Both the position numbers and the translations under genes were made by a program. A model generated the notes under the pieces. That model did not search any database. It saw only the letters and a list, made by a program, of their open reading frames with translations, and was not told the origin of the DNA. Shown here piece after piece: positions 1,694-40,337 of a DNA stretch of 64,000 nt. This DNA comes from Minisyncoccota bacterium (lineage in GTDB: Bacteria > Patescibacteriota > Minisyncoccia > Phycocordibacterales > UBA2100): assembly GCA_965267345.1 (NCBI GenBank), contig OZ253947.1, positions 72,662 through 136,661 of the forward strand. Reading direction: 5' to 3'. The stretch's first letter is position 1, and the number at the start of each line of letters is the position of its first letter.

Positions 1694-1753
1694 GCGCCCA
1701 TTATACACGTCGGCATGACACTCCGCACTGCACCCTGGTGGTATGATGAAGAT

Positions 1754-2275
1754 ATGCGCCGCATTACCTCACACGATCCACTGCAAGACGGGTACACGTA
1801 CACTTGCACTGAACCAATCGGTAAACACTTTGCCGACTTTGCGCCTGAACTCACTCCGCGCGAAATGCTCGAATTGGGCGTATTCGGTGGGGTGTACTTT
1901 CACTGTGACGGAAACGGCGAACAGGCAATTGCTGAGTACCCAGCAGCTTGGTTTGCCGATGCGCGCATCGCAAAGGACGGGTGCGAGCACATTGAGTACA
2001 ACTTTTTCACGGTACACGCTTCGCAGCCACGTCGCGTGTGGCGCGAGAAGGGATGGATCCACGAAGACGACCCACGTGGCTGGGTGCAGTGGTACTTCCG
2101 CTACTACCTAGGCCGGCGCATGCCCGAAGAGGATGAGCGTCAGATTGGTCGGTGGTACGCATTTCGCCGACACGCTGCGCAAGTACGGAATAATTGCGAA
2201 CCGCGCGACTACGCGTGTCGTCCGAAGCAACGACAGGCGCTGCTGCACTGGGCGTACGACAGTCGCGCTATGTAG
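1754..2275 (+). CDS. hypothetical protein (W/Y/R-rich; GWVQWYFRYYLGRR)
   Basis: Long ORF. Start chosen at MRRITSHDP to avoid a head-to-head overlap with the LOG gene. No family recognised. Confidence 0.5.
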   Translation: MRRITSHDPLQDGYTYTCTEPIGKHFADFAPELTPREMLELGVFGGVYFHCDGNGEQAIAEYPAAWFADARIAKDGCEHIEYNFFTVHASQPRRVWREKGWIHEDDPRGWVQWYFRYYLGRRMPEEDERQIGRWYAFRRHAAQVRNNCEPRDYACRPKQRQALLHWAYDSRAM

Positions 2276-2749
2276 CTAGTTGAGCATCCAGATGCCGTAG
2301 TTGAGGTAGCCGGCAAATAACACCCACAGCAGGTAGGGGAGCAGCAAGAGTCCGGCGACTTTGTGAACCCGCCAGAATACGACGATGGTTGCCACGATAA
2401 ATACGGCAAGCACGACGAGCTCAACAAAGGCAATACTCGGCATCTGCAGTCCGAAAAACAGAAATGACCAGCCGGCGTTAAGGAGCAGTTGCGCGCCGTA
2501 CACGATAAGTGCCGTGCGTGCCAGTGGGTGCGTGTGCCGTTTTTCCCACACGAGCCATGCGGCGAGCCCCATCAGTGCGTACAGGGTGATCCACACCGGT
2601 CCGAAGACCCAGTTTGGTGGTGCCAATAGTGGTCGCTCAAGCGTGGCGTACCACGTTGCTACACTCTGGGCGGTGAAAATCGAGCCGACGAGGCCGGCAG
2701 CCTGTGCGATACCGATTGAAATGAGTGCGTAGAGGAAGCGCATACGCAC
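2276..2749 (-). CDS. tspO: TspO/MBR family tryptophan-rich sensory protein
   Basis: About 155 aa with 5 TM segments and Trp-rich motifs (NWVFGPVWITLY, LLNAGWSFLFF). Confidence 0.85.
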   Translation of the reverse strand: MRMRFLYALISIGIAQAAGLVGSIFTAQSVATWYATLERPLLAPPNWVFGPVWITLYALMGLAAWLVWEKRHTHPLARTALIVYGAQLLLNAGWSFLFFGLQMPSIAFVELVVLAVFIVATIVVFWRVHKVAGLLLLPYLLWVLFAGYLNYGIWMLN

Positions 2750-2768
2750 ATGCTAGCACAACACATGC

Positions 2769-2797
2769 AAAAAAGACCCGCTCGCGGGTCTTTTTTG
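2769..2797 (-). terminator. rho-independent terminator (bidirectional hairpin gacccgctcgcgggtc flanked by A6 and T6)
   Basis: GC stem plus T-run on both strands; lies downstream of the minus-strand gene 2820-3014. Confidence 0.7.
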
Positions 2798-2819
2798 TAG
2801 ATATCTTCCAGGCTATGCG

Positions 2820-3014
2820 CTAGCGTACCATTTTTGGTGACTGGACAGCCACGTACAGAGCTGCGAGACCAACCAGTACGTAGACAACACGTGAAAGTGA
2901 GGTCATGTCGCCAAAGAGCATCGAGACCAAGTTGTAGTCAAACGCTCCGACGAGTCCCCAGTTGAGACCGCCGACAACGACAAGAACTACGGCAAGCCAA
3001 TTGACTGCTTTCAT
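2820..3014 (-). CDS. DUF378-like small membrane protein
   Basis: 64 aa, two TM segments, GGLNWGLVG motif. Confidence 0.65.
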   Translation of the reverse strand: MKAVNWLAVVLVVVGGLNWGLVGAFDYNLVSMLFGDMTSLSRVVYVLVGLAALYVAVQSPKMVR

Positions 3015-3158
3015 ATGTGAATAGATGATGTTAGACGTATGAATAAATATTCGACGCTCCCTTTATTATACTGCGTTACAAAAACGCACGATTGACAGTG
3101 TGTGGATAATGTTTCGGAGAGAGGAAAAACCCGCGGACGTGAGCCCGCGGGTGTATTG

Positions 3159-3404
3159 TTAGAAGATCAGCAGTGCCGCCACGATCATGATTGCGATCTG
3201 CGCCACTCGCTCGGGGACGTATGCCACGATAGGCACCGTGCCGCTTTGTTTCGCGAGCAGGTAGACTTGATGCATGAGCGGACAGGTGAACCACCACAGA
3301 AAGAGCACCATGCCGATCACGGGGTCGTACAAGAAACACCCCACGAAGGCAATCACTGTTCCTACACACATCAGTGCGTAGCGTGCTTCAACACTCACTG
3401 TCAT
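3159..3404 (-). CDS. small membrane protein (hypothetical)
   Basis: GGAGG Shine-Dalgarno sequence 7 nt before ATG (MTVSVEARY...); two predicted TM segments. Confidence 0.5.
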   Translation of the reverse strand: MTVSVEARYALMCVGTVIAFVGCFLYDPVIGMVLFLWWFTCPLMHQVYLLAKQSGTVPIVAYVPERVAQIAIMIVAALLIF

Positions 3405-3561
3405 TGCTGTACCTCCAGAGTCCAGCGGTTGATCTGCGATGAGTATAGTCCGGAAATGCACGTACGCAAACCTGCCCCACCTTCCTTCCCGCGTAAGGGC
3501 GGTCCTCGTGCACAAGGACCGCCCTTGTATAGTGTTGGTGTAGTATAAAACCACACAATGT

Positions 3562-3590
3562 ATAAAAGCTCGGCTTAAACCGAGCTTTAT
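3562..3590 (-). terminator. terminator hairpin downstream of tmRNA (aaagctcgg...ccgagcttt followed by TTTTAT on the minus strand)
   Basis: 9 bp stem plus U-tract immediately 3' of the tmRNA end. Confidence 0.6.
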
Positions 3591-3596
3591 AACGTG

Positions 3597-3984
3597 TGGA
3601 GGTGGGGGAGACGAATCCCCGTCCATGAGAATCTCCATATATACGTCTACGAAATCTAGTCCATTTTCTGAGTTTAAACACGATGTGTTTGAAATGGACA
3701 AAATCACATCATGTCGATCCCCATCGATTTAAAAGCAGTGGTGAGGAAACCACGTCTTCGAGTCCGAAAGTGTGACACCGCTATTTTCAATATCGGACGT
3801 CATGAGAAGCGATGGTCGCTTAGGCTACTGCGTAAGCGAAGCCGAAATCCTTTGCCTGAATTGGGCTTAGAATTCCGCGTGCAGTTTTAGATGCACCTAT
3901 TGGGTTGAGAAGTTGATACGGCAGTCTTCTCACTGCCATTTCGCATATATACCGAGCATTCACTGTCGAAACATAGTCACCCCC
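3597..3984 (-). ncRNA. ssrA: tmRNA (SsrA)
   Basis: Minus strand starts GGGGGTGACTATGTTTCGACAG and ends GGACGGGGATTCGTCTCCCCCACCTCCA. The 7 bp acceptor stem (GGGGGTG / CACCTCC) has a G3-U70 wobble, the alanine identity element. T-arm-like 3' end. Internal frame GCA AAG GAT TTC GGC TTC GCT TAC GCA GTA GCC TAA is a candidate tag (AKDFGFAYAVA). Directly adjacent to smpB. Confidence 0.8.
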
Positions 3985-4598: not shown

Positions 4599-6599
4599 AT
4601 GGATAGGAACAAAACCACTGTCAACCTGCAGGCACGCAAACAGTCGGGCAAGCAGGCACCAAAAAAGAAAGGTCAGAAGAAGCGCGCGAAGGGGCCGCTT
4701 GGTGATATGCCGCATATGCCCGAGAACAACTTTTGGATGCAAATGGCCATCACGTTTGTGGTGTTTTTGCTGTTGCTCTCTGGCTACACAACGGTTGTCA
4801 ATCTTTTTGAAGAAAAAAATGAAATTTCACTCACACAACTCACGAGTGATATTAACGCCGGTTTAGTCAGTAGCATTGATGTCAGCGGCAACACCATTGA
4901 AGCAACGTATCCGGCACCCGAAGAGGGCACTGAGCCAATCGTCAAAGAGTCACAGAAAGAAACCGAAAGCTCACTTACTGAAACATTAACGAATTACGGT
5001 GTTAGCCCTGAGGCGCTGACCGCGGTAAATCTCACTATCAGCGATCCGAGCGGTTTTCGCTACTGGTTTATAACCCTGGCGCCGCTCTTGCTCCCGCTGA
5101 TTATTATTATCGCGATCATTTGGTATCTGTCGCGACAGGTGCGTGGTGCAGGTGTGCAGGCATTCTCATTTGGACAGAGCAAGGCACGCATTATTGACCC
5201 GAGCGACACCAAGCAGCGCGTGGTTTTCGACGATGTGGCGGGTGCTAAAGAGGCAAAAGAGGAACTGTACGAAATTGTTGACTTCCTCAAGAATCCGAAA
5301 AAGTTTATTCAAATTGGGGCGCGTATTCCGAAAGGTGTGATGCTGATGGGTGCGCCCGGCACCGGAAAGACGCTCTTGGCCCGCGCCGTCGCGGGTGAAG
5401 CGAATGTGCCGTTCTTCATTATTTCCGGTTCTGAATTTGTCGAGATGTTCGTTGGTGTTGGTGCGAGCCGCGTGCGCGATTTGTTCAAGATGGCAAAGAA
5501 GGTTGCGCCGGCCATCGTCTTTATTGATGAAATTGATGCGGTCGGACGGGTGCGTGGCACCGGTGTCGGCGGCGGTAACGACGAGCGCGAACAAACACTC
5601 AACCAGATTCTCGTTGAGATGGACGGGTTTGAGCCGAATGAAAAAGTAATCGTTATGGCGGCAACGAACCGTCCCGACGTACTCGATCCGGCGCTGCTGC
5701 GTCCGGGGCGTTTCGACCGTCGCGTTACGATCGACCTGCCCGATCGCGACGACCGCGAGAGTATTCTGAAAATTCATGCACGCAAAAAGCCGATGGGCGA
5801 GGATGTGAACTTGCGCGTCATTGCCGAGCGTACACCCGGATTCTCCGGTGCCGACCTCTCAAACTTAATGAACGAAGCCGCTATCTTGGCAGCACGCGAA
5901 GATCGCAAGGAAATCACGCAGTATGACCTCATACGTTCGATCGAGAAAGTGATGCTCGGCCCTGAGCGTAAGAGCCACGTATTGAATAAGCGCGAAAAGG
6001 AAATTACTGCCTACCATGAGGGTGGGCACGCACTGGTGGCGTCGATACTCCCATACGCTGATCCTGTACACAAAATATCGGTCATCAGCCGTGGCCGCGC
6101 TGCCGGCTACACGCTTAAGTTGCCGTTTGAGGATCGCAAGATGCAGTCGAAGCGTGAATTCCTCGACGACATTGCCGTGTCACTCGGTGGCTACGTTGCC
6201 GAAAAAATGATCTTTGATGACGTCACCACCGGCCCGTCGAACGACCTGCAGGTGCTGACGAACATCGCTCGCAACATGGTGACCCGCTGGGGTATGTCAG
6301 AGAAATTAGGCACCGTTGCACTTGCCGGCGACGATGGCAAAACACTCTACGGCAGCGGTGTGTATGGCCGCGAGTACTCGGAGAAAGTGTCGGCTGATAT
6401 TGATGCTGAGGTGAAAGCGATCATTAACGACGCCTACAAACGTGCCGAAGATATTCTCACGAAGCACCGTGGCGCACTGGACGCGATTGCTGCACGCCTG
6501 ATTGAAGTGGAAACACTTGAACGCGATGACTTTGAGGACCTGCTGCGCGAGCACAACATCACCCCCAAAAAGAAAGAAGACATTGAACATCAGAGCTAA
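4599..6599 (+). CDS. ftsH: ATP-dependent zinc metalloprotease FtsH
   Basis: AAA Walker A motif GAPGTGKT, second region of homology, HEGGH zinc motif, N-terminal TM segments. Confidence 0.95.
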
Positions 6600-6605
6600 T
6601 GACCT

Positions 6606-7643
6606 ATGGGTATCGAGAGTGCAGAAGGAGGGCGACGTATCGACACGTTTGCGCCTAAGGTCGTTCTCCATACTGAAGAGCCGCTCTTAGATGCGTCTAT
6701 CGAATTGCTGGTTACCGGTACGCCGCATACCGATGAGTTAGACGCTGCGCTCATGCACGCTGGCGGCGATGAACCAAAGTTCGTGTCGCGCATTGAACGT
6801 GCACGTCCATCCATTGAGCAATTCATCGCACGCATTGAAGCGCGCTTTGAAAAAGGTCGCGGATATCGTGCCGGTATTCGTGATGCATTGCGCTTCATGC
6901 TCAAACTGCACGCCGATCAAGGTGATCGCTATGATTCCGGTGAGCCATTTGTGACACATCCACTCGCAGTTGCTACCGATACGCTGCGTATGATGGGGAA
7001 ACGCGAGGACGCATGGCATGCGTGTATTGCGGCACTGTTGCATGACAGTGTCGAAGATCACGCGCGATGGATTAAACTTGAACGCCAACTTTTGTTAGAT
7101 GATTCGGAGGAGAGCCATGTGCCCTATGAGATTCCTCAGGAAGAAGAAACTGAGGAAGAACAGAGGCAGCGTATCAAAAAGCGTGAGCGCGCAGAAGCAC
7201 TCGCTGGTTTGCAGGCACTCTTCGATGCACGTATACGATATTTGGTAAACCGAGTGAGTACGCCGCTCAAAGAAGCAGAATACGAGAACCTGTCACAGAA
7301 TGAAAAAAATGCGATCTACACGCGTTTCATTGAAAAGATTTTTGCTGAGGAGGATGGCGATGTCGTGCCTGCAGTCATTAAATGGGCTGATTTGAAACAA
7401 AATGCACTGACTATTGGGCACATTCGCGAACGCGCGCGCCTCCTGCGCGAGCAGGGTGCGGATAACAAGGCGGAGGAGCTTGAGCGTTTCTATGAAAAAG
7501 TAAAGGTTAAGTATGCACCCGCGCTTGAGGTAGTACGGCAGTTTTTCGTCGAACTCACGAATGGAGAGCACCCACTGTTTGCAGAAAAAGAACGGGCACT
7601 TACAGACCTAAGAGCAGTGCTTACCAAAGAGTACGACGCTTGA
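6606..7643 (+). CDS. HD-domain protein, RelA/SpoT-type (p)ppGpp hydrolase-like
   Basis: FVTHPLAVA...ALLHDSVED matches the HD motif of the RelA/SpoT hydrolase domain; C-terminal charged/coiled region. Confidence 0.65.
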   Translation: MGIESAEGGRRIDTFAPKVVLHTEEPLLDASIELLVTGTPHTDELDAALMHAGGDEPKFVSRIERARPSIEQFIARIEARFEKGRGYRAGIRDALRFMLKLHADQGDRYDSGEPFVTHPLAVATDTLRMMGKREDAWHACIAALLHDSVEDHARWIKLERQLLLDDSEESHVPYEIPQEEETEEEQRQRIKKRERAEALAGLQALFDARIRYLVNRVSTPLKEAEYENLSQNEKNAIYTRFIEKIFAEEDGDVVPAVIKWADLKQNALTIGHIRERARLLREQGADNKAEELERFYEKVKVKYAPALEVVRQFFVELTNGEHPLFAEKERALTDLRAVLTKEYDA

Positions 7644-7677
7644 TATTGCGCCGCCGACTCTCTAGTATGTATTTCGA

Positions 7678-7751
7678 CCGCCCTTAGCTCAGTTGGTAAG
7701 AGCTCGGAGCTTATATCTCCGCGGTCCCAGGTTCGAGTCCTGGAGGGCGGA
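7678..7751 (+). tRNA. tRNA-Ile (anticodon UAU)
   Basis: Cloverleaf: acceptor CCGCCCT/AGGGCGG, U8 A9, D-arm GCTC-AGTTGGTAA-GAGC, anticodon stem CGGAG/CTCCG with loop CTTATAT, T-arm CCAGG-TTCGAGT-CCTGG, discriminator A. No CCA encoded. Confidence 0.75.
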
Positions 7752-7782
7752 CAGGGCATTTACGTTAGTTGCTTTAAACAGA

Positions 7783-7806
7783 GGTGTCTCGATTAATCGA
7801 GACACC
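7783..7806. promoter_or_regulatory. palindrome GGTGTCTCGATTAATCGAGACACC (first of two)
   Basis: Perfect 10 bp inverted repeat around a TTAA centre. Confidence 0.5.
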
Positions 7807-7845
7807 CGCGGTGTAGTGCCACACAGTGATCTGCCGGTGCTCTCA

Positions 7846-7867
7846 GTGTTTCGATTAATCGAAACAC
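7846..7867. promoter_or_regulatory. palindrome GTGTTTCGATTAATCGAAACAC (second of two; same TCGATTAATCGA core with a compensatory C:G to T:A change)
   Basis: Seen in sequence 40 bp after the first copy and upstream of the small gene at 7933. Confidence 0.5.
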
Positions 7868-7932
7868 ACACAGGCACCCCCTGTTGTGTTTTGGCTACAT
7901 ATGGTATAGCTAGTGACGAAAGGAGGGGAGAC

Positions 7933-8139
7933 ATGTGTGAACAACTTGTTTCTGTAATTCTTTCAGGTCTGTGCTTGCTGACACTTTTCGCTCTCGGCTT
8001 TTTTCTTGTGATGGAGGTGCATATAGCTGCCGGCTTTGCCGTAGCAGCAACAGCGTGGTGCCTCTGGGTGGTGATGACGATCTTCTGCATTCCGCCTATC
8101 ATATTTAGAATCCGAGGGCGATGGTTTCGGCTGTCGTAA
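7933..8139 (+). CDS. small hydrophobic membrane protein (hypothetical)
   Basis: RBS AAAGGAGGGGAGAC before ATG; 68 aa, two TM helices. Confidence 0.45.
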   Translation: MCEQLVSVILSGLCLLTLFALGFFLVMEVHIAAGFAVAATAWCLWVVMTIFCIPPIIFRIRGRWFRLS

Positions 8140-8231
8140 GATCTGTAGCAGGCCGCCACACTCGTGTGGCGGCCTTTCTATATCCACGAGGCACGCTTTT
8201 TCGCGTGCACCCACCGCGGTACTATTGGCTT

Positions 8232-9689
8232 ATGGAACGGCGACGCTTGTTCGTAACTATTCTTATGCTCGTGCTCTTTGTAAGTGCGGGCGCCCCGTTC
8301 GTGGCACGCGCGGCAACTGCTGAGGAACTGCGTGCACAAATTGCCGATATTCTCGCCGAAATCAACTACCTGCGCACGCAGCTCAATGCCGTGAGTGCGG
8401 GGCAGCAGGCGGGTACGACAACCGCCGAGCAACCGAGCTACACGGTTGGCTCAGCACGCGCGTCACAGGCGGCTACCTTTCAATACAGTCGCTGTCCTGA
8501 CCTGCAGTTCGACCTTGAGCGCGGTGATGTGAATGCAGATGTTGCCGAAGAGGTAAGTATGCTCCAGCGGTTTCTGTCGCAAGACTCCAGCATCTATCCT
8601 GAAGGAGAAATAACGGGGTACTTCGGGCCGGCAACCGAGCGTGCGGTGCAGCGTTTTCAGGAACGTCACGGCATTGTCGCACGAGGTGACTACCAGTCGA
8701 CGGGCTACGGCCGCGTCGGTCCGCGCACCCGATGGGCAATCAAAAACTCGTGCGACTCATCGCTGGCACCACAAAGCCAAGCACCCACATCACCCGACCC
8801 ACTCGACGAATTTGTGGTGACGAGTACATCAGGGTCGAGTTCACGCACCACGTATGCACCGGTCGGCGGTGTGCAGACGAGCGGCGGTCCCTCAACGTGC
8901 TTTGTGCAACCCGACCGCGGTACGGCGCCTCTGACCGTACGCGCCCGACTACTCCTTGGCGGCTCACTGTGTGACGGCGATCTCACCTACCAAATTGATT
9001 GGGGTGATGGCTCCACGTCCTCGCCGCGTGTGTGTAGCGACACGAATCAACACTACGAACAGCTAACGCACACCTACCTTGTGCCCGCCGTATACCCCGC
9101 ACGTCTTATACAGTCACATCCGAATGCACAGTTTGCCGACCGCTCATGTTCGGTCACGGTAGCAGCGGTTCCCGAATCCAATGACGGCACCATTACCGGC
9201 CAGTGTCGCAGCTGGACGGACGGGTGTAACACATGCTCACGCGACTATGAAAACGGTCCCGCGCGCTGTACGGAACGGTACTGCACGCAGTACGGGGCAC
9301 AGCAGTGCTACGAGTATTTCCCCGCATCGGCAGGAGCAACGGGCGACACGCTCCGCGTGCGCGTGATCAGTAAGGCATCGGGCATTATGGAATTCACGGC
9401 ACGCATCAATGTCGCCAACAGCTGCGACGGCGGTGTGTATAAAATTTACTTTGGTGACGGAGAATCATCAGTGCAACCATTGGCTCCGGGTGCGTGTCAG
9501 GCATTTGAGCGCACGGTGCGCCACACGTATGCTAACTCCGGCACTTACTCAGCCTTTCTCGTAAAAGACGACGTCGAAGTTGACCGTATCACTGTGGTTA
9601 TTAGCGACACGACCTCATCGGCAGGACACAGCAACGTCGCGAGTGTCATCGTCGCTATTGAAGAGTTTATTCGTTCACTATTTCGCTAG
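8232..9689 (+). CDS. secreted protein with coiled coil, peptidoglycan-binding domain and PKD-like repeats
   Basis: Signal peptide MERRRLFVTILMLVLFVSAGAPFVARA. PG_binding_1-like segment (RFLSQ...GYFGPATERAVQRFQERHGI). Repeats of the form C..Y.IDWGDGS....HTY...G.Y. Confidence 0.75.
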   Translation: MERRRLFVTILMLVLFVSAGAPFVARAATAEELRAQIADILAEINYLRTQLNAVSAGQQAGTTTAEQPSYTVGSARASQAATFQYSRCPDLQFDLERGDVNADVAEEVSMLQRFLSQDSSIYPEGEITGYFGPATERAVQRFQERHGIVARGDYQSTGYGRVGPRTRWAIKNSCDSSLAPQSQAPTSPDPLDEFVVTSTSGSSSRTTYAPVGGVQTSGGPSTCFVQPDRGTAPLTVRARLLLGGSLCDGDLTYQIDWGDGSTSSPRVCSDTNQHYEQLTHTYLVPAVYPARLIQSHPNAQFADRSCSVTVAAVPESNDGTITGQCRSWTDGCNTCSRDYENGPARCTERYCTQYGAQQCYEYFPASAGATGDTLRVRVISKASGIMEFTARINVANSCDGGVYKIYFGDGESSVQPLAPGACQAFERTVRHTYANSGTYSAFLVKDDVEVDRITVVISDTTSSAGHSNVASVIVAIEEFIRSLFR

Positions 9690-9693
9690 TATG

Positions 9694-11082
9694 TATCGAC
9701 GGGCACAGCTGTTTGTGATGATTGGGTGCGTATTTGCGCTTGGTGCGCTGCCCGTACACGCACAAACGCTTAACACTGACGACATTTTCGCACGCATCAA
9801 TCAATTGCTCGCTCGGGTACAGACACTGCAAGCTGAGCTCAGTGCGCTGCAGGGCAATCAGGCGCAGGGGCCAGTGCAGGGCACCTTCGCCACACCATCA
9901 CCGCACGACACGCCGCGTGTGGAAGTTTGCACACAGACACTCAGCAGCACGCTCGGCTACGGCGATCGCGGCCAGAGTGTTACCGCACTCCAGCAGTATC
10001 TTCGCGGTACGGGCGACTATACCTATCCTGAAATCACCGGGTACTACGGATCGGTAACGCAAGAAGCAGTGCAGCGGTGGCAGGCGCGCCGCGGGATTGT
10101 GGCATCAGGCACACCCGCAACAACCGGCTACGGCCGCGTCGGTCCGCAGACACGCGCGGCAATCAATAGCGACTGCGGTGACATTGTGCGCGATCCTGTA
10201 CTGTCGCGTCCACTTGTGGTGACACCTGAGATCGGACAGGTACCGCTCGACGTCGTGACGACATTCTCTGTTGCCGGTTCATCGTGCGCTTCTTACGCAC
10301 TCGACTGGGGTGACGGAACCCCCGCACTTGCGTTTGATGCAGGCGTTGGCGACACCTGCACGCGTGACATTGCGCACAAACGCGCGACACACACCTATGC
10401 CAATGGCGGAGTGTACCGTGTGACACTCCGTGCCACACAGGGCCCACTCGCAACTGCCGGCCTCGTTGGCGAAACATTCGTATCAGTCGGCGCACCGGCT
10501 CCTGGCGGTATTTCACTGTCACCAACGTCGGGACTCACACCATTTACCACAAGCGTGACCTTTCCCGTGCAAGGGTCGCAGTGTACCTCGTATCGGGTGA
10601 ATTGGGACGACGGGGTGCGCGATGAGTACGAGGCAACCAGTACCGTTTGCAATGCAAAGACGGGCACACAAGCTGTCTCGCACACCTATACTAATCCCGG
10701 AACGTACAACGTGACGTTGCAGGTTGGCCAAGCACCACTGAGCGCACTGCCGGTGCAGCAGGAGTGGGAAGTTGTGGTCAACGACGGACGCGTCGGGAGT
10801 GCGGGCGTTGATGTCGCACCAACGCGCGGCACGGCGCCGCTTGATGTTTCCGTGCGCATTTACGGCGAAGGAAAGGCATGCCAGTCATACGGCGTGCAGT
10901 GGGGCGACGGGAGTGACGGCGAGTACTACGATGCCGGCACCACGCCATGCAATGACACATACTTTAACTACACGCTACGCCACACGTACACACAAGCAGG
11001 GCGCTACCTGCTGTCAGTGGCGACCGGACGCGACGCACTCGGCAACCTCACGTCGGTGCCATACGTCGTGGTCGTTGAGTAA
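9694..11082 (+). CDS. paralogous secreted protein with coiled coil, peptidoglycan-binding domain and four PKD-like repeats
   Basis: Same architecture as the upstream gene (YALDWGDGTPA..., YRVNWDDGVRD..., YGVQWGDGSDGE... each followed by HTYxxxGxY). Starts 5 nt after the previous stop. Confidence 0.75.
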   Translation, partial: YRRAQLFVMIGCVFALGALPVHAQTLNTDDIFARINQLLARVQTLQAELSALQGNQAQGPVQGTFATPSPHDTPRVEVCTQTLSSTLGYGDRGQSVTALQQYLRGTGDYTYPEITGYYGSVTQEAVQRWQARRGIVASGTPATTGYGRVGPQTRAAINSDCGDIVRDPVLSRPLVVTPEIGQVPLDVVTTFSVAGSSCASYALDWGDGTPALAFDAGVGDTCTRDIAHKRATHTYANGGVYRVTLRATQGPLATAGLVGETFVSVGAPAPGGISLSPTSGLTPFTTSVTFPVQGSQCTSYRVNWDDGVRDEYEATSTVCNAKTGTQAVSHTYTNPGTYNVTLQVGQAPLSALPVQQEWEVVVNDGRVGSAGVDVAPTRGTAPLDVSVRIYGEGKACQSYGVQWGDGSDGEYYDAGTTPCNDTYFNYTLRHTYTQAGRYLLSVATGRDALGNLTSVPYVVVVE

Positions 11083-29227: not shown

Positions 29228-30043
29228 ATGGATCTTTTCACCCCACTGTTCTTTTGCGTCGGTCTCATTGTTGGCAGTTTTCTCAACGTTGCCATCCTGC
29301 GTCTCCATACGGGTCAATCGCTTTCAGGTCGCAGTGGCTGCATGAGCTGCCGCGCGCAGCTGCAGTGGTATGAACTGCTGCCACTGGTATCGTTTTTTGT
29401 GCTCCGCGGACGCTGTCGCAGCTGTGGCAGTAGTGTGTCGCACCAGTACTGGATTGTTGAGCTGACGACTGCGGCGCTATTTACACTGGTTGCCGTGCAG
29501 GGCTGGGATCTAGTGGTAACGACGACGGCACTGGCAATGGTGGCTGTGTTGGTTGTGTTAGCAGTCTACGATATACGCCACACCATTCTTCCAAACGCAT
29601 TGGTCTACCTGTTTGCCGGCCTCGCGCTTGTCGCGCACGTGCCGTTTGTACTGGCGTTGCCGCTCACGGAAGCACTCGTGACTGTTGCGGGTGTGCTTAT
29701 TGCCGGTGGCATTGTTGCTGCGCCACTGTTTGTGCTGTGGCTTGTATCACGCGGGGCATGGATGGGGCTCGGAGATGTAAAGCTGGCACTTGGTGTCGGC
29801 TGGGCACTCGGCGCACTCTACGGATTTGTCGCACTCATGATTGCATTTGTGACGGGTGCACTCGTTGGCGTTGCACTTCTGTACGCACCGCGGGTTATGC
29901 GCGCGCTTTCGTTGAGCGGCATTGGGCAACAGTTTACAATGAAGAGCGAGATACCGTTTGGCCCATTCATTATCGGCGGCTTTTTTATATCGTTATTCTG
30001 GGGTTCTGAGATAGTGATCGCATTCAGTTCGTTGTTTATATGA
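29228..30043 (+). CDS. pilD: prepilin peptidase PilD (A24 family)
   Basis: N-terminal CxxC zinc motif pairs, multi-TM, conserved Asp residues. Confidence 0.85.
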   Translation: MDLFTPLFFCVGLIVGSFLNVAILRLHTGQSLSGRSGCMSCRAQLQWYELLPLVSFFVLRGRCRSCGSSVSHQYWIVELTTAALFTLVAVQGWDLVVTTTALAMVAVLVVLAVYDIRHTILPNALVYLFAGLALVAHVPFVLALPLTEALVTVAGVLIAGGIVAAPLFVLWLVSRGAWMGLGDVKLALGVGWALGALYGFVALMIAFVTGALVGVALLYAPRVMRALSLSGIGQQFTMKSEIPFGPFIIGGFFISLFWGSEIVIAFSSLFI

Positions 30044-30663
30044 ATCAGCTACAGGCACACATTTCATCTCGTACACCATGTCGACGTCGACAGGGTGGTT
30101 TTACTGTCATTGAGCTGATTGTTGTCGTTGGTATTGTTGTCACCATTTCAAGTATTGTGCTGGCCAGCTACTCGCAGTTCGGCGGCACCGTGTTGTTGCG
30201 TAACCTTGCCTACGACGTTGCATTGTCGGTACGTGAAGCACAGATTTTCGGTATTTCAGCACGCAGCTTTGGTGGCGTGGAATTTGCGGCAGGACACGGT
30301 GTGTACTTTGACTTACAGGAGACCAACAGGAGCTTTACCTTATTTACCGATGCGAACGAAGACGGCGTCTACACCTCAGCCGGCAGCGAGTGGGTCGAGA
30401 CGTATAATCTGGGGCAGGGGTACCTTATTGAGCGTATCTGTGTACCGGATGGTGAGACGGAAGATTGCTTGGTGACTGATTTGAGTATTCTCTTTAAGCG
30501 ACCGGAGCCGGACGCTATCATTCGCGCGTCGTTTGGCTCAGGGTTTTCGCAGTATGAGCGTGCGCGCATTGTGGTGATGTCGCCGCGTGAAGACCGCATG
30601 AGCATACTGGTGGAAGCAGCCGGTCAGATATCAGTCCAGCGGTATACCCTTGATGATGAATAG
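30040..30663 (+). CDS. minor pilin / pseudopilin (FimT/GspH-like)
   Basis: GGFTVIELIVV prepilin N-terminus. Confidence 0.7.
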   Translation: MNQLQAHISSRTPCRRRQGGFTVIELIVVVGIVVTISSIVLASYSQFGGTVLLRNLAYDVALSVREAQIFGISARSFGGVEFAAGHGVYFDLQETNRSFTLFTDANEDGVYTSAGSEWVETYNLGQGYLIERICVPDGETEDCLVTDLSILFKRPEPDAIIRASFGSGFSQYERARIVVMSPREDRMSILVEAAGQISVQRYTLDDE

Positions 30664-31279
30664 CATGAATACACAACGCGGATTTACCTTGGTTGAGATG
30701 CTCGTGGCAGTGTCGCTTTTTGCCGTGGTTATGACAATCAGCATCGGAGCGCTCTTGTCGCTGATTGATGCGAACCGCAAAGCACAGGCTCTGCAGTCGG
30801 TGATGAACAACCTCAACGTCGCACTCGACGGTATGGTGCGTAACATTCGCATGGGGCATACGTATCACTGTGGGTCAGCAAATGAGACAAATAAGACGAC
30901 GCTCAGTACCGCTACTGACTGTACCCTCGGCGGCGGTTTAGTTGCCTTTGAGTCATTCGGCGGCTCGAGTGCTTCGACGGCCGACCAGTGGGTGTACTGG
31001 TTTGCAAACGGTCGTCTCTACAAATCAGAGGATGCACGTGATACGGCCCTCCCGATTACCGCACCGGAAATTAACATTGATTCATTTGAAGTGTTCGTGA
31101 CGGGTGCACAGGAGACACTCAGTGATGACGGAGAAACACTGCAGCCAAAAGTAGTGATTGTCGTGCAGGGGACAGCTGCTGCTGAAGGAGATACCTTTGG
31201 GGTGATTGGGACCAATGAAAAAATACGTACGATATTTAATATTCAGGCAGTCGCGTCACAGCGATTACTCGATCTGTAG
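30650..31279 (+). CDS. minor pilin (PilW-like)
   Basis: RGFTLVEMLVA prepilin N-terminus. Confidence 0.7.
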   Translation: MMMNSMNTQRGFTLVEMLVAVSLFAVVMTISIGALLSLIDANRKAQALQSVMNNLNVALDGMVRNIRMGHTYHCGSANETNKTTLSTATDCTLGGGLVAFESFGGSSASTADQWVYWFANGRLYKSEDARDTALPITAPEINIDSFEVFVTGAQETLSDDGETLQPKVVIVVQGTAAAEGDTFGVIGTNEKIRTIFNIQAVASQRLLDL

Positions 31280-31282
31280 TCT

Positions 31283-31816
31283 ATGCAGCGCACGTACACA
31301 CCACGCCACCATATTCGCGGCTTCACACTCATCGAAACACTGGTTGCAATCAGTATCTTGGTCGTGGCAGTTGCAGCGCCGCTGACGCTGGCGTCACAGA
31401 GCCTCTTTGCGGCGCTCTACGCCAAAGACCAGACCACCGCATTCTATCTGGCACAGGAAGCTGTTGAAATGGTGCGGAACAAGCGTGATCAAAACCTACT
31501 GGCGTACCTGAACGACGGCACCACTGATTGGCTCGCCGGTATTCCCACCGATTCTGCACTGCACGTTGATGTGCCGAATGACACGATGGTCGCGTGTGTT
31601 GGCGACTGCTTGGACACGAAGCTATTGCACAACGACTCGTTTTATAATCACGAAGCGGGGGAGGCAACGCGCTTTAGCCGCAGCGTGCGCGTGACGCCAA
31701 ATGAGGAACTTGAAGGCGAAGCAACCATTACGGTGATGGTGCAGTGGCAGACAGGTTCATTCCAAGAGCGTACCTTTACCCTCGAAGAGCGCATCTATAA
31801 CTGGCTTCCAAATTAG
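31283..31816 (+). CDS. minor pilin (PilV-like)
   Basis: RGFTLIETLVAISI prepilin N-terminus. Confidence 0.7.
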   Translation: MQRTYTPRHHIRGFTLIETLVAISILVVAVAAPLTLASQSLFAALYAKDQTTAFYLAQEAVEMVRNKRDQNLLAYLNDGTTDWLAGIPTDSALHVDVPNDTMVACVGDCLDTKLLHNDSFYNHEAGEATRFSRSVRVTPNEELEGEATITVMVQWQTGSFQERTFTLEERIYNWLPN

Positions 31817-31817
31817 T

Positions 31818-32324
31818 ATGCACACACGATTCACACCCACCAATCGCGGATTCACATTGTTGCTTGCAGCACTGGTTGCGTCGCTGCTCTCAGCACTTGG
31901 GCTGGCAATGTTCGGCATCGCACAGAAGGAGGTGGTGCTCTCGGCCTTGGGTCGTGACTCGCAGCTTGCATTTTATGCTGCAGACACCGGTGCCGAGTGT
32001 GCACTCTTCTGGGATTTTAAGTATCAGGCATTTGCAACGAGCAGCGTCTACACATCGACATCGACGCCCGCCACCTGTGCCGAGCAAGATTTGCAGGATT
32101 TTCCCACGCCGTGGGAAAACGGTTTTCCTGACGGTGTTGCCGGCCTCGGTGGAAGTGACCAGACTACCTTCTGGTTTGAACCCGACGGCTACTGTGTGTA
32201 CGTAACGGTGACAAAGCGCGACACGGCACCATTTACGGTTGTCGAAGCGCTGGGCTACAGTCGTCCGTGTGACCAACCCGACCACCCGCGACGTCTCGAG
32301 CGCGCCGTGCGCACCACCTTTTAG
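31818..32324 (+). CDS. minor pilin (PilX-like)
   Basis: RGFTLLLAALVASLL prepilin-like N-terminus. Confidence 0.6.
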   Translation: MHTRFTPTNRGFTLLLAALVASLLSALGLAMFGIAQKEVVLSALGRDSQLAFYAADTGAECALFWDFKYQAFATSSVYTSTSTPATCAEQDLQDFPTPWENGFPDGVAGLGGSDQTTFWFEPDGYCVYVTVTKRDTAPFTVVEALGYSRPCDQPDHPRRLERAVRTTF

Positions 32325-32333
32325 CGAGTGTAG

Positions 32334-34662
<2,329 letters not shown>

Positions 34663-34663
34663 T

Positions 34664-36085
34664 ATGGACACACGCACCCTCACACTTGCACAGGCGCGAA
34701 CACTGCTCGACACCAAAGAGGTATCAGCACGCGAGTTGTGTGATGCGTACCTCGCACGCATTGCCGAGCGCAACGACGAGCTCAACGCCTATCTTGAAGT
34801 ATTCGATGATGCAGCTGCGGCCGCGGAGGAGGCTGACGCGCGTATCGCGCGCGGCGAACAAACGCCACTGACAGGCATCCCACTGGCAATCAAAGACAAC
34901 ATTCTCATCCACGGTAAGCGAGCAACGTCAGCGTCGCGCATGTTGGAACAGTACACTGCGGCATACGAGGCAACGGCAATCGCACGACTCAAGGAGCAAG
35001 GAAGTGTATTTCTTGGACGCACAAATATGGATGAGTTTGCACTCGGTAGTTCGACAGAGAACTCAGCGTACGGACCGACGCGTAATCCTCATGACGAGAC
35101 GCGCGTACCAGGGGGCTCATCAGGCGGTTCAGCTGCTGCGGTGGCCGACGGCCTTGCGCTGGCAGCACTCGGCTCAGACACTGGCGGCTCAATTCGCCAG
35201 CCGGCGGCGCTCTGTGGACTGGTTGGCTTCAAACCGTCATACGGTGCGGTGTCGCGGTACGGTCTCATGGCTGCAGCCTCTAGTTTTGATCAGATTGGAC
35301 CGCTGGCGCGCACGGTTACCGACGCCGAGCAGCTCTTTACTGCGATACAGGGAGCAGACGAGCACGACGCGACCTCAATTGCGGACTACGCACGGACACC
35401 GGCAGGGACGCAGCGTATTGGTGTCCCGCGCGCATTTCTCACTGAGGGTGTTGATGGGGACGTCGTTGCCGCATTTGATACGCACCTTGAAGCACTTGCA
35501 CGCGCAGGGTACGACATTGTCGATATCGAACTTCCGTCGATTGCCTACAGCCTTGCGGCGTACTACATCATTAACCCAGCTGAGGTATCAACGAACCTCG
35601 CGCGATTTGATGGTGTACGGTACGGATTACGTGTAGCAGGAGATTCGCTCGCCGATGACTACATGCAATCACGCGGGCAAGGCTTTGGCGCCGAAGTGCG
35701 TCGTCGTATCCTCACGGGAACATTCGTGCTCTCGTCAGGCTACGCAGATGCCTACTATCGAAAAGCTGCCGCTGTGCGGAATGTTATGCGCGATGAATTT
35801 GCCCGCGTGCATGCCGACATTGATGCAATTGCAACACCGACGAGTCCGACGCCCGCATTTGCTCTCGGCGAAAAAACAGACGACCCCGTTGCGATGTATG
35901 CGGCCGATCGCTTCACGGTACCCGTGAACCTCGCGGGTGTGCCCGCACTCTCGGTGCCAATGGGTACGGTAGAGCGCGAGGGCACCGCACTGCCAATCGG
36001 CATGCAGTTTATCGGCGCGTACGGTACTGACACACACCTCTTTGCGCTCGGACGCGAATTTGAGAAGATGCGAACAGAGCTATGA
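34664..36085 (+). CDS. gatA: Asp/Glu-tRNA amidotransferase subunit A (amidase)
   Basis: Amidase signature GGSSGGSAAAVA with the Ser-cisSer-Lys triad context. Confidence 0.95.
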   Translation: MDTRTLTLAQARTLLDTKEVSARELCDAYLARIAERNDELNAYLEVFDDAAAAAEEADARIARGEQTPLTGIPLAIKDNILIHGKRATSASRMLEQYTAAYEATAIARLKEQGSVFLGRTNMDEFALGSSTENSAYGPTRNPHDETRVPGGSSGGSAAAVADGLALAALGSDTGGSIRQPAALCGLVGFKPSYGAVSRYGLMAAASSFDQIGPLARTVTDAEQLFTAIQGADEHDATSIADYARTPAGTQRIGVPRAFLTEGVDGDVVAAFDTHLEALARAGYDIVDIELPSIAYSLAAYYIINPAEVSTNLARFDGVRYGLRVAGDSLADDYMQSRGQGFGAEVRRRILTGTFVLSSGYADAYYRKAAAVRNVMRDEFARVHADIDAIATPTSPTPAFALGEKTDDPVAMYAADRFTVPVNLAGVPALSVPMGTVEREGTALPIGMQFIGAYGTDTHLFALGREFEKMRTEL

Positions 36086-36729
36086 ACCCAACACCGGTGA
36101 ACACACAGGCGCTGCCCACGTTCGATACACCAATTGAAGGTGGTCGTGCCGAAGTGGTGCAGCCCACGCAAGAGACGGCAGTATCGTCGTTTGACGTACC
36201 ATGGGATATTTTCACCAGCGCGTGGATTAACTTCTTTCTCGTCGCGCTGATTGTGTCGGTAGTGTTTGCGATCATTACACTGTATGCGCGCTTTCGTCTG
36301 TACCAGATACGTAGTGCGGAAGCGGAGTACTACACAAACCAGCCGCTGTCATCTGCTGCACGGAAAGTGTTGCAAATTGAAGAGGCGGCGAGTATGGCCG
36401 GCGGTGCACACGAAGCGCGGTGGCGTGATGTACTGCGCCTTGCCGATTCAGCACAGCCAAATGATTGGCGACAGGCTATTGTCGAAGCTGACATCATGCT
36501 CGAAGATGCAATAACGCAGAAAGGATATCAGGGCGAGTCGCTCGGTGAGAAAATGAAAACGGTACGTCGCAGCGAGGTGAATACAATTGATGGCGCATGG
36601 GAGGCGCACAAGATGCGCAACCGCATTGCGCACGAAGGAGCGGCAATGGAACTGTCGCAGCGTGAAGTGAAGCGCATCATTGCGCTGTTTGAACGCACGC
36701 TGCGTGAACTCGATTACATTTTCGCATAA
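36082..36729 (+). CDS. membrane-anchored protein with HEPN-like C-terminal domain (W...RNRIAHEG, Rx4-6H motif)
   Basis: One TM helix (FFLVALIVSVVFAIITL). C-terminus GAWEAHKMRNRIAHEGAAME resembles the HepT/HEPN Rx4-6H motif. Start overlaps the gatA stop (ATGA). Confidence 0.5.
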   Translation: MNPTPVNTQALPTFDTPIEGGRAEVVQPTQETAVSSFDVPWDIFTSAWINFFLVALIVSVVFAIITLYARFRLYQIRSAEAEYYTNQPLSSAARKVLQIEEAASMAGGAHEARWRDVLRLADSAQPNDWRQAIVEADIMLEDAITQKGYQGESLGEKMKTVRRSEVNTIDGAWEAHKMRNRIAHEGAAMELSQREVKRIIALFERTLRELDYIFA

Positions 36730-36767
36730 GTTTTACCCGACGAGCGCTTTATGCTATAGTGCGCCGC

Positions 36768-36839
36768 AGCGGGGTGGAGGAGTAGTAACTCGCCGGGCTC
36801 ATAACCCGGAGATCGCTGGTGCAATTCCAGCCCCCGCAA
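36768..36839 (+). tRNA. tRNA-fMet (initiator, anticodon CAU)
   Basis: AGCGGGGTGGAGG...CTCATAA...CCAGCCCCCGCAA. Three G:C pairs closing the anticodon stem; 1:72 mismatch; close to E. coli tRNA-fMet. No CCA encoded. Confidence 0.8.
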
Positions 36840-37042
36840 CAAGTACACATAACGCCACACAATTTTGTGTGGCGTTATGTGTTACTGGTGCGCGGGGAGC
36901 AAGGCACCTGCGTGCCTTGCGTCTGGAAGTGCAAGGCGGAGCCATGTCTGAACGAAGTGAAGACGGGCGAGCCCGGACAGGAGCCACTTATCCTGAGTGC
37001 ACGAAGGATTAGTGAGCTGACGTCAATTCCAGCCCCCGCAAC
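36840..37042 (+). repeat. tRNA-fMet-attached element (copy 1): hairpin, conserved core, then a 20 nt copy of the tRNA 3' end (37023-37042)
   Basis: caattccagcccccgcaaca is repeated exactly. Core ...CATGTCTGAACGAAGTGAAGACGGGCGAGCCCGGACAGGAGCCACTTATCCTGAGTGCACGAAGGATTAGTGAGCTGACG is shared with copies 2-4. Confidence 0.65.
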
Positions 37043-37083: not shown

Positions 37084-37160
37084 TGGTGCCGAGGGACGGG
37101 ATCGAACCGTCGACCTTAGGTTTATGAGTCCTACGCTCTAACCAACTGAGCTACCTCGGC
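37084..37160 (-). tRNA. tRNA-Met (anticodon CAU; elongator Met, or Ile2 if lysidinylated), CCA encoded
   Basis: Reverse complement reads GCCGAGGTAGCTCAGTTGGTTAGAGCGTAGGACTCATAAACCTAAGGTCGACGGTTCGATCCCGTCCCTCGGCACCA. Confidence 0.8.
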
Positions 37161-37318
37161 AATGCACGTATGCGCACAACGATACCAATTTCACGCGCTG
37201 CTTTCAATAAAAATACACTTGTGCACACCATAGTGTCGTGTGCGCAAACAGATACGCCATGAACATGTATACTTGAAGTAGGTCGAGCACATTACTCACT
37301 CCTTACGCATTTTTGTTT

Positions 37319-37528
37319 ATGGCAACACGCAAAACAGCAAAAAAGCGAACGACCGCGAAGCGCAAGCCTGCAGCACGTAAGCGCGTCGCGAAAAAGACAG
37401 CGCGCAAGACGACAGCAAAGAAGCGCACGACCGCGAAGCGCAAACCTGCAGCAAAGAAGAAAACGACTACAAAGCGCAAAGTGGCACGTAAGACGACGTC
37501 ACGCAAGAAAGCAACACGTCGTCGCTAG
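37319..37528 (+). CDS. histone H1-like / HC2-like basic repeat protein (69 aa, K/R/T/A-rich)
   Basis: MATRKTAKKRTTAKRKPAARKR... with internal tandem repeats of TTAKKRTTAKRKPAA (DNA repeat 37340-37465); followed by a terminator. Confidence 0.55.
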   Translation: MATRKTAKKRTTAKRKPAARKRVAKKTARKTTAKKRTTAKRKPAAKKKTTTKRKVARKTTSRKKATRRR

Positions 37529-37622: not shown

Positions 37623-37697
37623 GCGGACGTAGCTCAACTTGGTTAGAGCACCCGCCTGTCACGCGGGAGGTTGCGGGTTCAAGTCCCGTCGTTCGCG
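37623..37697 (+). tRNA. tRNA-Asp (anticodon GUC)
   Basis: GCGGACGTAGCTCAACTTGGTTAGAGCACCCGCCTGTCACGCGGGAGGTTGCGGGTTCAAGTCCCGTCGTTCGCG. Confidence 0.9.
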
Positions 37698-37891
37698 CAT
37701 AAACTCAGTGTAGTCCCGACCCGAGAGGGTTGGGGCTTTACTGATTTACAGCGAGGTGGGACTTGAAAGACGGAGCCGGTATACAAGACAAAGCGTAGCG
37801 AAGTGCTTGTCGGCGAGTCCGGGCAGGAGCCACTTATCCTGAGTGCACGAAGGATTAGTGAGCTGACGCCACGTCCCGTCGTTCGCGCATA
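37698..37891 (+). repeat. tRNA-Asp-attached element (copy 2): terminator-like hairpin, conserved core, 19 nt copy of the tRNA 3' end (37873-37891), then a second terminator-like hairpin
   Basis: gtcccgtcgttcgcgcata is repeated exactly. The flanks (cagtgtagtcccgacccgagagggttggggctttactg vs cagttagaccccgtgcggtagcactggggttttactg) are only about 70% identical. Confidence 0.65.
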
Positions 37892-38770: not shown

Positions 38771-38843
38771 GCCGGGATAGCTCAGTTGGTAGAGCGCACC
38801 CATGGTAAGGGTGAGGTCACGGGTTCGAATCCCGTTCCTGGCT
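38771..38843 (+). tRNA. tRNA-Thr (anticodon GGU)
   Basis: GCCGGGATAGCTCAGTTGGTAGAGCGCACCCATGGTAAGGGTGAGGTCACGGGTTCGAATCCCGTTCCTGGCT. Confidence 0.85.
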
Positions 38844-39010
38844 CACGCAGGCGATGAGCCAAGTGAGGAGGAAAGCAGGCACACTGCTTTGCCTGCGTCG
38901 GGATGCGAAAAGCGCAGTCATGTCTGAGCATTGCGAAGACAGACGAGCTCGGGCAGGAGCCACTTAGCGCGTAGCGCTTAGTGAGCTGACGCCGAATCCC
39001 GTTCCTGGCT
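38844..39010 (+). repeat. tRNA-Thr(GGU)-attached element (copy 3): hairpin, conserved core with a variant hairpin (GCGCGTAGCGC), then a 19 nt copy of the tRNA 3' end (38992-39010), abutting the next tRNA
   Basis: cgaatcccgttcctggctc is repeated exactly. Core ...GTCATGTCTGAGCATTGCGAAGACAGACGAGCTCGGGCAGGAGCCACTTAGCGCGTAGCGCTTAGTGAGCTGACG. Confidence 0.65.
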
Positions 39011-39015
39011 CCAGC

Positions 39016-39088
39016 GCCACCGTAGCTCAGTTGGTAGAGCAATACATTCGTAACGTATAGGTCGGAGGTTCGAGTCCTCTCGGTGGCT
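39016..39088 (+). tRNA. tRNA-Thr (anticodon CGU)
   Basis: GCCACCGTAGCTCAGTTGGTAGAGCAATACATTCGTAACGTATAGGTCGGAGGTTCGAGTCCTCTCGGTGGCT. A31-C39 mismatch in the anticodon stem. Confidence 0.8.
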
Positions 39089-39090
39089 CA

Positions 39091-39476: not shown

Positions 39477-40337
39477 TTGCCGATGAATAACGAAAAGGTA
39501 CAAAAACGCATTGCAGCTATTGAAGCGGCAATGGCACAGCCGGACTTTTGGAACAATCCGGCACAGGCACAGCAACGCATAAAAGAAATGCAGGAACTTA
39601 AAGACGAGCTTGCAGGCGTGGGGAAGTACGACCGTGGGAATGCCATCATCAGTATTCTCTCAGGTGCAGGCGGGAGTGATGCCGAGGATTTTTCGGCGAT
39701 GCTCTTTCACATGTACCGGAAGTTTGTTGAGAGTCGTGGTTGGAAAGCACACATTCTCGACGAAAGTAGCACTTCGGCAGGGTATCGCAGCATTTCGTTT
39801 GAAGTTGAGGGAAAGAATGTCTACGGTACGCTCAAACATGAATCAGGGGTGCATCGCCTCGTGCGCATCAGTCCGTTTAATGCACAAGGAAAGCGGCAAA
39901 CGTCATTTTCCCTCGTTGAAGTACTTCCTGAGTTGCCATCGACTGAGGACATCGAGCTTTCAGATGCTGATCTTGAGATTAGCTTCGCTCGTTCAGGCGG
40001 CGCCGGTGGGCAGAATGTGAATAAGGTGGAAACGGCAGTGCGCATTACCCACATCCCGAGCGGTATAACAGTAAAGTGTACTGCGGAGCGCAGTCAGGCG
40101 CAGAATAAAGAGAAAGCTATGGAGATACTGCGCGGTAAGCTCTACCGTAAACAGGAAGACGATCGCGAAAAGGAAGCGCAAGGACTGTCGGTATCGAAAG
40201 ACACAAAAATTGAATGGGGGAGCCAAATTCGCTCATACGTGCTGCATCCGTACCAGAAGGTTAAAGACCATCGCACCGACGTTGAAACAGCAAATGTCGA
40301 CGCAGTGCTCGGTGGCGACCTGTCAGTGTTTCTTTAA
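39477..40337 (+). CDS. prfB: peptide chain release factor 2 (no programmed frameshift site apparent)
   Basis: SPF tripeptide ([15 protein letters not shown]) and GGQ motif ([17 protein letters not shown]). Single continuous ORF of 286 aa. Confidence 0.9.

Follow-up and report, generated by a model that had tools for sequence, protein, structure and literature searches.

What occupies the place behind gatA in an operon that seems to lack its gatB? The question is raised by a 64,000-nucleotide stretch of DNA from a Minisyncoccota bacterium (NCBI GenBank assembly GCA_965267345.1, contig OZ253947.1, positions 72,662 to 136,661 of the forward strand; hereafter the window, numbered from its first letter), in which gatC and gatA are followed by an open reading frame (ORF) of 215 amino acids, here called X (36082..36729, + strand). 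A first-pass annotation of the letters alone described X as a membrane-anchored protein that stands where gatB is expected and ends in a HEPN-like RNRIAHEG motif. By analogy with other HEPN proteins, we consider it rather probable that X is a cytoplasm-facing, membrane-tethered HEPN endoribonuclease made together with GatC and GatA, and that it acts as a vertically inherited housekeeping or regulatory factor.

The first line of evidence is the predicted fold. AlphaFold2, run on the family alignment, assigns residues 110-210 of X a predicted local distance difference test (pLDDT) score of 96-98. The C-terminal domain (residues 109-215; 36406..36726, +) is modelled as an up-down bundle of four helices forming two alpha-hairpins, with H1 at 109-121, H2 at 126-146, H3 at 169-188 and H4 at 193-209, and with a short predicted insert helix (154-160) between the second and the third. 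Foldseek matches the model to the HEPN entries 2hsb (probability 0.99), 1wwp (0.97) and 2q00 (0.91). A structural comparison with HepT had been proposed at the outset, and HepT toxins are indeed among the best fold matches of X; Roquin, the C-domain of kanamycin nucleotidyltransferase, YutE, HI0074, the sacsin HEPN domain, Csm6, Csx1 and MtlR are found as well. In members of the HEPN superfamily, helix 3 ends with an Rx4-6H motif whose arginine is followed directly by a polar residue (N, D or H), helix 2 has a conserved acidic residue, typically in the form Ex3[KR], and an insert separates helices 2 and 3 (PMC3710099). The putative motif of X, R179-N180-R-I-A-H184 (36616..36633, +), lies within GAWEAHKMRNRIAHEGAAME (residues 171-190) and within GAWEAHKMRNRIAHEG, in the last turns of helix 169-188, which is the position of the superfamily motif (PMC3710099). 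The invariant N180, directly after R179, corresponds to the polar residue, and E135-A-D137 with its invariant D137 lies within helix 126-146, where the Ex3[KR] form of HEPN helix 2 is not present. From the fold, the motif with its polar residue, the insert and recurrent weak matches to the Swt1-like HEPN model, we conclude that the modelled C-terminal domain of about 105 residues is a HEPN domain, in a family without a curated profile; the earlier description of X as HEPN-like thus holds.

Profile searches of X assign it to no different, well-known family, an outcome that would have overturned the initial description, and no curated family reaches its threshold. Pfam returns sub-threshold signals only, RiboL-PSP at E 0.075 (13.4 bits) and Swt1-like HEPN at E 0.17 (12.6 bits), and weak HEPN_Swt1 matches recur in 25 of 54 family members, the best at 1.3e-3. 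Chance matches in the transmembrane (TM) region are all that NCBIfam gives for X, and sequence searches of the PDB with whole X and with the family profile give TM-driven or chance matches only. The family itself is large and unnamed, and every named source is a patescibacterium of the Parcubacteria/Paceibacteria type. A first search found 84 homologues, all labelled hypothetical, and those with a named source all come from Patescibacteria (Kaiserbacteria, Wolfebacteria, Parcubacteria). A profile of the C-terminal domain finds 3064 cluster representatives at E <= 1e-3, 760 of them at E <= 1e-30, with the HEPN domain at or near the C-terminus in nearly all of the 150 matches listed. At least 573 species-representative genomes carry the domain, and the 80 retained are all metagenome-assembled genomes of Patescibacteria.

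Conservation within this family bears directly on whether the motif is real. A bare Rx4H is a common chance pattern, and the RNRIAH string might be a fortuitous match, or the ORF no gene at all. In an alignment of 54 sequences, the N-terminal half cannot be aligned and the last ~105 residues are well conserved, with W129, A136, D137, L140, G151, A172, W173, H176, R179, N180, I182, A183 and H184 invariant. Because 227 of 228 family proteins retain W-x2-H-x2-R-N-x3-H, and with it RNxxxH, the motif is not coincidental, and its place in the fold together with this conservation substantiates the initial reading of RNRIAHEG as a HEPN-like Rx4-6H motif. The residue two positions past the motif histidine is glycine in at least 90% of members, as in X. 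Thousands of homologues with an invariant motif, a confidently predicted fold and conserved synteny leave the idea of a chance match with practically no credit; it is already refuted.

The second line of evidence concerns the membrane anchor. An N-terminal tail (residues 1-45; 36082..36216, +), modelled at a pLDDT of 51-57, unconserved and rich in indels in the alignment, is predicted to be extracytoplasmic. It is followed by the one hydrophobic segment of X, a TM helix at residues ~46-69 (SAWINFFLVALIVSVVFAIITLYA; 36217..36288, +), which forms a Kyte-Doolittle peak and is spanned in the AlphaFold2 model by a continuous helix, 38-86, with a pLDDT of 97-98. This agreement of hydrophobicity and model bears out the single TM helix and membrane anchoring first ascribed to X. 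Y68 and R72, at the cytoplasmic end of the TM helix, are nearly invariant, and the HEPN domain begins ~40 residues past the helix. Among 228 family proteins, one hydrophobic segment precedes the domain in 106 and two do so in 111. The positive-inside rule of membrane protein topology is well established, and in the family the 15 residues ahead of the last TM carry a net charge of -0.55, against +1.09 behind it; because of this negative-to-positive change, the HEPN domain of X should be cytoplasmic.

X is a short form of the family, with its 45-residue low-confidence tail and one TM. Long members (384-696 aa) have a short N-terminus, a first TM, SH3_3 repeats, a second TM and then the HEPN domain; in P0156, for instance, SH3_3 is matched at E 6.6e-11. 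Between their two TMs, P0127 (696 aa), P0156 (607 aa), P0085, P0119 and the gene at 6216-8306 of locus L037 show three to seven SH3_3-like repeats in tandem (GERYWYVDFESGPDGWV). The presence of these repeats suggests that the long members have a cell-wall or ligand-binding ectodomain. A fusion of GatA and X had been considered for long members of 450-696 aa and was ruled out, as they contain SH3_3 repeats and no amidase domains.

The third line of evidence is the genomic position of X. Its start codon (ATG, 36082-36084) overlaps the stop codon of gatA (TGA, 36083-36085) in an ATGA, and the coordinates confirm the coupling of a 215-aa ORF to gatA that had been described. The gatA gene (34664..36085, +; 473 aa) is firmly identified, with 551.9 bits on the TIGR00132 equivalog model against a cut-off of 481.1 and a Pfam Amidase match at 1e-140. 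The first gene of the conserved gatC-gatA-X block, gatC (34372..34662, +; 96 aa), matches Pfam GatC PF02686 at 29.1 bits against a cut-off of 23 and falls slightly under threshold on TIGR00135 (41.1 versus 47.1). The order gatC-gatA-X is found in all seven homologue-bearing contigs. In loci found through X, tblastn places a co-oriented gatA directly upstream in 87 of 87, at a median gap of 12 nt and within 50 nt in 74 of 86. Since that sample was chosen through X itself, a second was drawn from metagenome contigs via gatA alone, with at least 700 nt required downstream of gatA, and here X follows gatA in 62 of 64 loci. Altogether, the chromosomal position of X is unchanged across at least 149 loci, while the protein genes downstream of it vary from locus to locus. 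The view that X rides the amidotransferase operon is supported by this conserved linkage.

Does X then take over the role of the missing gene? In support of a GatC-GatA-X amidotransferase in which X functionally replaces GatB there is its position after gatA together with the absence of gatB from the 64-kb window, and nothing else. That absence, noted from the start, is borne out by searches of two kinds. Queried by tblastn with one Obg and two GatB proteins of Paceibacteria, the window yields no match stronger than E = 0.1, and S. aureus GatB has none at 1e-5. A GatB model is matched by none of the window ORFs scanned with Pfam or NCBIfam among the 15 of at least 400 aa: 11 of these 15, scanned with one or the other, have other identities or no match, and the ORFs 13137, 50293 and 54789 have Pfam matches to non-GatB families. 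X itself matches neither GatB_N (PF02934) nor GatB_Yqey (PF02637) in Pfam and NCBIfam, and true GatB proteins of relatives score 496-562 bits. Apart from its place after gatA, X shares nothing with GatB, to which it is unrelated in sequence and in fold.

The relatives provide the answer. Full-length GatB genes are abundant in Paceibacterota, and in the clade that bears X GatB is encoded by a separate gene of 470-500 aa. In loci L088 (9030-11440) and L089 (8975-11440), gatB directly follows the GTPase gene obg; L031 reads obg-gatB-ligA-gatC-gatA-X, with obg-gatB at 1308-3753; and L044 reads ligA-gatC-gatA-X-gatB, where gatB starts 20 nt past the stop of X. No locus of the X-chosen or the gatA-chosen sample has gatB directly after gatA. 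In this clade, gatB seems to reside behind obg as a rule. X is an extra member of the operon and not a stand-in for GatB, because L044 carries both genes in the order gatC-gatA-X-gatB. With gatB and X both present in L031 and L044, replacement is refuted for the relatives, and there is next to no chance that it applies to X. Of the original statement that X occupies the expected gatB position, one part stands, as X directly follows gatA; the expectation itself does not, as relatives encode gatB elsewhere, after obg or, in L044, after X. Behind gatC-gatA these bacteria normally carry X, their gatB being located after obg, and a gatA that is not followed by gatB is therefore no sign of pathway loss.

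A second alternative is that X is a toxin of a conflict system, of the abortive-infection or toxin-antitoxin (TA) type, that is merely lodged in the operon. Defence and TA systems do account for most prokaryotic HEPN families (PMC3710099), the best fold matches include HepT toxins, and one family member has a weak match to PADLOC CARF_HEPN (E 0.005). Five of six members are without a PADLOC match, and two of the three scanned against PHROG, the window protein included, have none at E <= 0.1. The third, P0056, has two weak PHROG matches (E 0.0028 and 0.057), to families whose function is not known, both in the TM and linker part and outside the HEPN domain. HepT is a soluble protein encoded beside an MNT nucleotidyltransferase gene, and the tyrosine two residues past its motif histidine is AMPylated. 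X differs from HepT of the MNT-HepT type VII TA system (SO_3166, PDB 5yep; 8xdj; 7ae2) in its TM anchor, in H184-E-G replacing HxY and in having no DUF86-type profile match. No MNT antitoxin gene lies beside X in the window or in L001-L007, where the neighbours are gatA, tRNAs and unrelated genes, and no nucleotidyltransferase or other partner gene adjoins X in the window. The initial remark that X has no cognate nucleotidyltransferase is thus upheld, and the likeness to HepT drawn at the same time does not extend to family membership: with no profile match, no MNT neighbour and no HxY, X is not a HepT/DUF86 member.

The evolutionary behavior of X speaks against a toxin as well. Across 74 loci, the pairwise identities of the X domain follow those of GatA, the two matrices correlating with r = 0.54, a value reached by 0 of 999 permutations, and the mean pairwise identity of the X domain (53%) is close to that of GatA (58%). 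Composition is normal, with a GC content like that of the neighbours, and the chromosomal position is fixed in the 149 or more loci noted above. Because X diverges together with GatA, is nearly as conserved, has no partner gene, resembles its neighbours in GC and draws scant PADLOC or PHROG matches, the sequence pattern fits a vertically inherited gene under purifying selection and not a mobile conflict gene. A lodged toxin is accordingly very unlikely.

The main rival accepts the HEPN fold and denies the nuclease activity: X could be a membrane-embedded oligomer or pore of the Csx28 type, or it could keep GatCAB or tRNA at the membrane as a scaffold or an RNA-binding anchor. In type VI-B2 CRISPR-Cas, Csx28 is indeed similar in size and shares with X an N-terminal TM and a C-terminal cytoplasmic four-helix HEPN domain. 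It is linked to Cas13b, however, and its octamer is a pore in which the contacts are non-canonical, face-to-back, and the motif arginine is buried, whereas X has no CRISPR context and carries a canonical, invariant RNxxxH. No cas genes are found among the scanned window genes or the related loci, no CRISPR/Cas13 genes are nearby, and there is no evidence of contact with GatCAB. Non-catalytic HEPN domains usually lose the motif (PMC3710099), and the X family has invariant R, N and H residues, as well as D137 and H176. Such an invariant R-N-H triad speaks against a Csx28-like assembly, and a protein without nuclease activity is the less likely outcome, yet one to be reckoned with.

Several observations weigh against reading X as an operon-bound HEPN nuclease. 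First, Csx28, likewise a TM helix joined to a divergent HEPN domain, forms a pore in the membrane and does not act as a nuclease (bioRxiv 10.1101/2021.11.02.466367). Second, all curated HEPN profiles stay under their cut-offs, the best member scoring 17.4 bits against 27.5, and the domain profile finds no solved HEPN structure by sequence. Third, the linkage of gatA and X may reflect inherited gene order and not shared function, because it is part of a wider block with ligA upstream and a tRNA cluster downstream. In tblastn, a ligA homologue indeed lies upstream in most related loci, with exceptions such as L006, which has an M48 peptidase there. Fourth, L130 and L156 are real exceptions in which no X follows gatA. 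Finally, for the source genome itself, the position of gatB is inferred from relatives. In the two exceptional loci (L130, 2525-4896; L156, 1394-3800), gatA is 55-57% identical to that of the window and has no X downstream; it is followed in L130 by a 494-aa secreted protein and in L156 by a 160-aa membrane protein and a LAGLIDADG-like ORF.

[quoted passage not shown] From the DUF4145 TM-HEPN group X is set apart by the lack of that group's WP signature; no invariant WP occurs in the TM of the X family in the 54-sequence alignment, and DUF4145 is absent from the three families listed for the window protein and from the 25 commonest of the 55 found with 54 members at E <= 1. The KEN domains of Ire1 and RNase L, and C6orf70, are alike in combining an ectodomain or lumenal part, a TM and a cytoplasmic HEPN ribonuclease (RNase) at the membrane (PMC3710099). 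Unlike Ire1 and RNase L, X has no kinase module, and the KEN domain is circularly permuted, eukaryotic and without detectable sequence relation to X. An incomplete search of the literature on HEPN with Patescibacteria or with gatA or gatB found no paper that joins these subjects, and no description of the X family or of its fixed place in the gatCA operon of a single bacterial lineage. X represents a new, unnamed family in a known superfamily and a known architectural class. Its setting in a core operon is conserved and unusual, and apparently has not been described before.

How might such a protein act? Co-produced with GatC and GatA, X would cleave RNA without metal at the inner membrane face, as a HEPN dimer that pairs two motifs. 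By analogy with the chemistry of the HEPN family (PMC3710099), His184 would activate the 2'-OH and Arg179 would stabilise the transition state. The tether would limit X to RNA near the membrane, and the ectodomain, where present, may gate dimerisation as in Ire1 or RNase L; ectodomain-gated activity has been proposed for other TM-fused bacterial HEPNs (PMC3710099). The substrate class is most likely tRNA or translation-linked RNA, possibly mRNA, a case of guilt by association that is favoured because the neighbours are GatCA and a tRNA cluster led by an initiator-type tRNA-Met. A bolder and distinctly doubtful extension would make X a minimal Ire1-like sensor RNase in core translation control across Parcubacteria/Paceibacteria, in which an envelope or host-contact signal passes through the variable ectodomain to the HEPN dimer, which then cuts initiator tRNA or the tRNAs served by GatCAB. 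Should this hold, X would be a vertically inherited, housekeeping bacterial HEPN nuclease functionally coupled to transamidation.

To our knowledge, bacterial HEPN domains are known almost solely from TA, abortive-infection and CRISPR systems, which are fast-evolving and mobile. X places a HEPN domain with its active-site signature in a core translation operon, inherited with GatA across hundreds of ultra-small, host-dependent species. We know of few recognised RNases in this group of bacteria, and of almost no genetics. Were X active as an RNase, the whole lineage would share a membrane-tethered enzyme of RNA processing or regulation.

The tRNA cluster begins 39 nt past the stop codon of X with a tRNA-Met(CAT) of initiator type (36768..36840, +), found by ARAGORN and scoring 58.8 bits in Rfam. 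It is followed by a second tRNA-Met(CAT) (37084-37160, -), tRNA-Asp(GTC) (37623-37698, +), tRNA-Thr(GGT) (38771-38844, +) and tRNA-Thr(CGT) (39016-39089, +). The order of the five tRNAs is shared by L001, L003, L009, L013, L024, L046 and others. Within 300 nt past the end of X, a tRNA-Met(CAT) comes first in 60 of 83 loci, 52 times on the same strand; in eight loci the tRNA is inverted yet adjacent. The acceptor stem of the first tRNA-Met resembles that of E. coli tRNA-fMet (xGCGGGG...CCCCGCAAC). The tRNA is mismatched at 1:72, and in the window three G-C pairs adjoin its anticodon loop. From its sequence it is probably the initiator tRNA. The 38-nt spacer between X and this tRNA contains a promoter-like TTTACC-17-TATAGT with an extended TG (36732-36760, +); the tRNA-Met may have a promoter of its own. 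Around X, Rfam finds nothing but tRNAs.

Upstream of the gatC-gatA-X block lies its usual neighbour, ligA (32346..34379, +; 677 aa), which was assigned by tblastn and not by a family scan; the genes of relatives at this position carry Pfam ligase domains. A simple scan of the + strand reveals no terminator-like site beyond chance between ligA, gatC, gatA and X. A type IV pilus gene set (21027-32324, +), with a PilM-like protein, a PilB/GspE ATPase, PilC/T2SSF and several prepilin-like ORFs, reaches up to ligA, and pilin genes likewise precede ligA in L001, L003, L004 and L005. In addition to gatA and the tRNA genes, the neighbours of X in the window include a basic ORF of 71 aa, a DUF2238 membrane protein and a release factor. 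The 71-aa ORF (37313-37528, +), which lies between two tRNA genes and has a mirror ORF on the other strand (37303-37506, -), is built of repeats in which K, R, T and A make up nearly every residue (KKRTTAKRKPAA...), and is matched by neither Pfam nor NCBIfam; it might encode a small basic nucleic-acid-binding protein or be a mere repeat. The release-factor gene (39477-40337, +) has the PCRF and RF-1 domains in only 286 aa, its match beginning at position 77 of the PCRF profile, and the short N-terminus seems typical of the clade, as relatives have 269-296 aa.

Two further features lie farther from X. The ORFs 8121-9689 and 9580-11082 (+) are adjacent and partly overlapping, both with PG_binding_1 and PKD domains, and probably encode paralogous surface proteins. 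A tRNA-Ile with anticodon TAT (UAU), a type that is uncommon in bacteria, is encoded at 7678-7752 (+).

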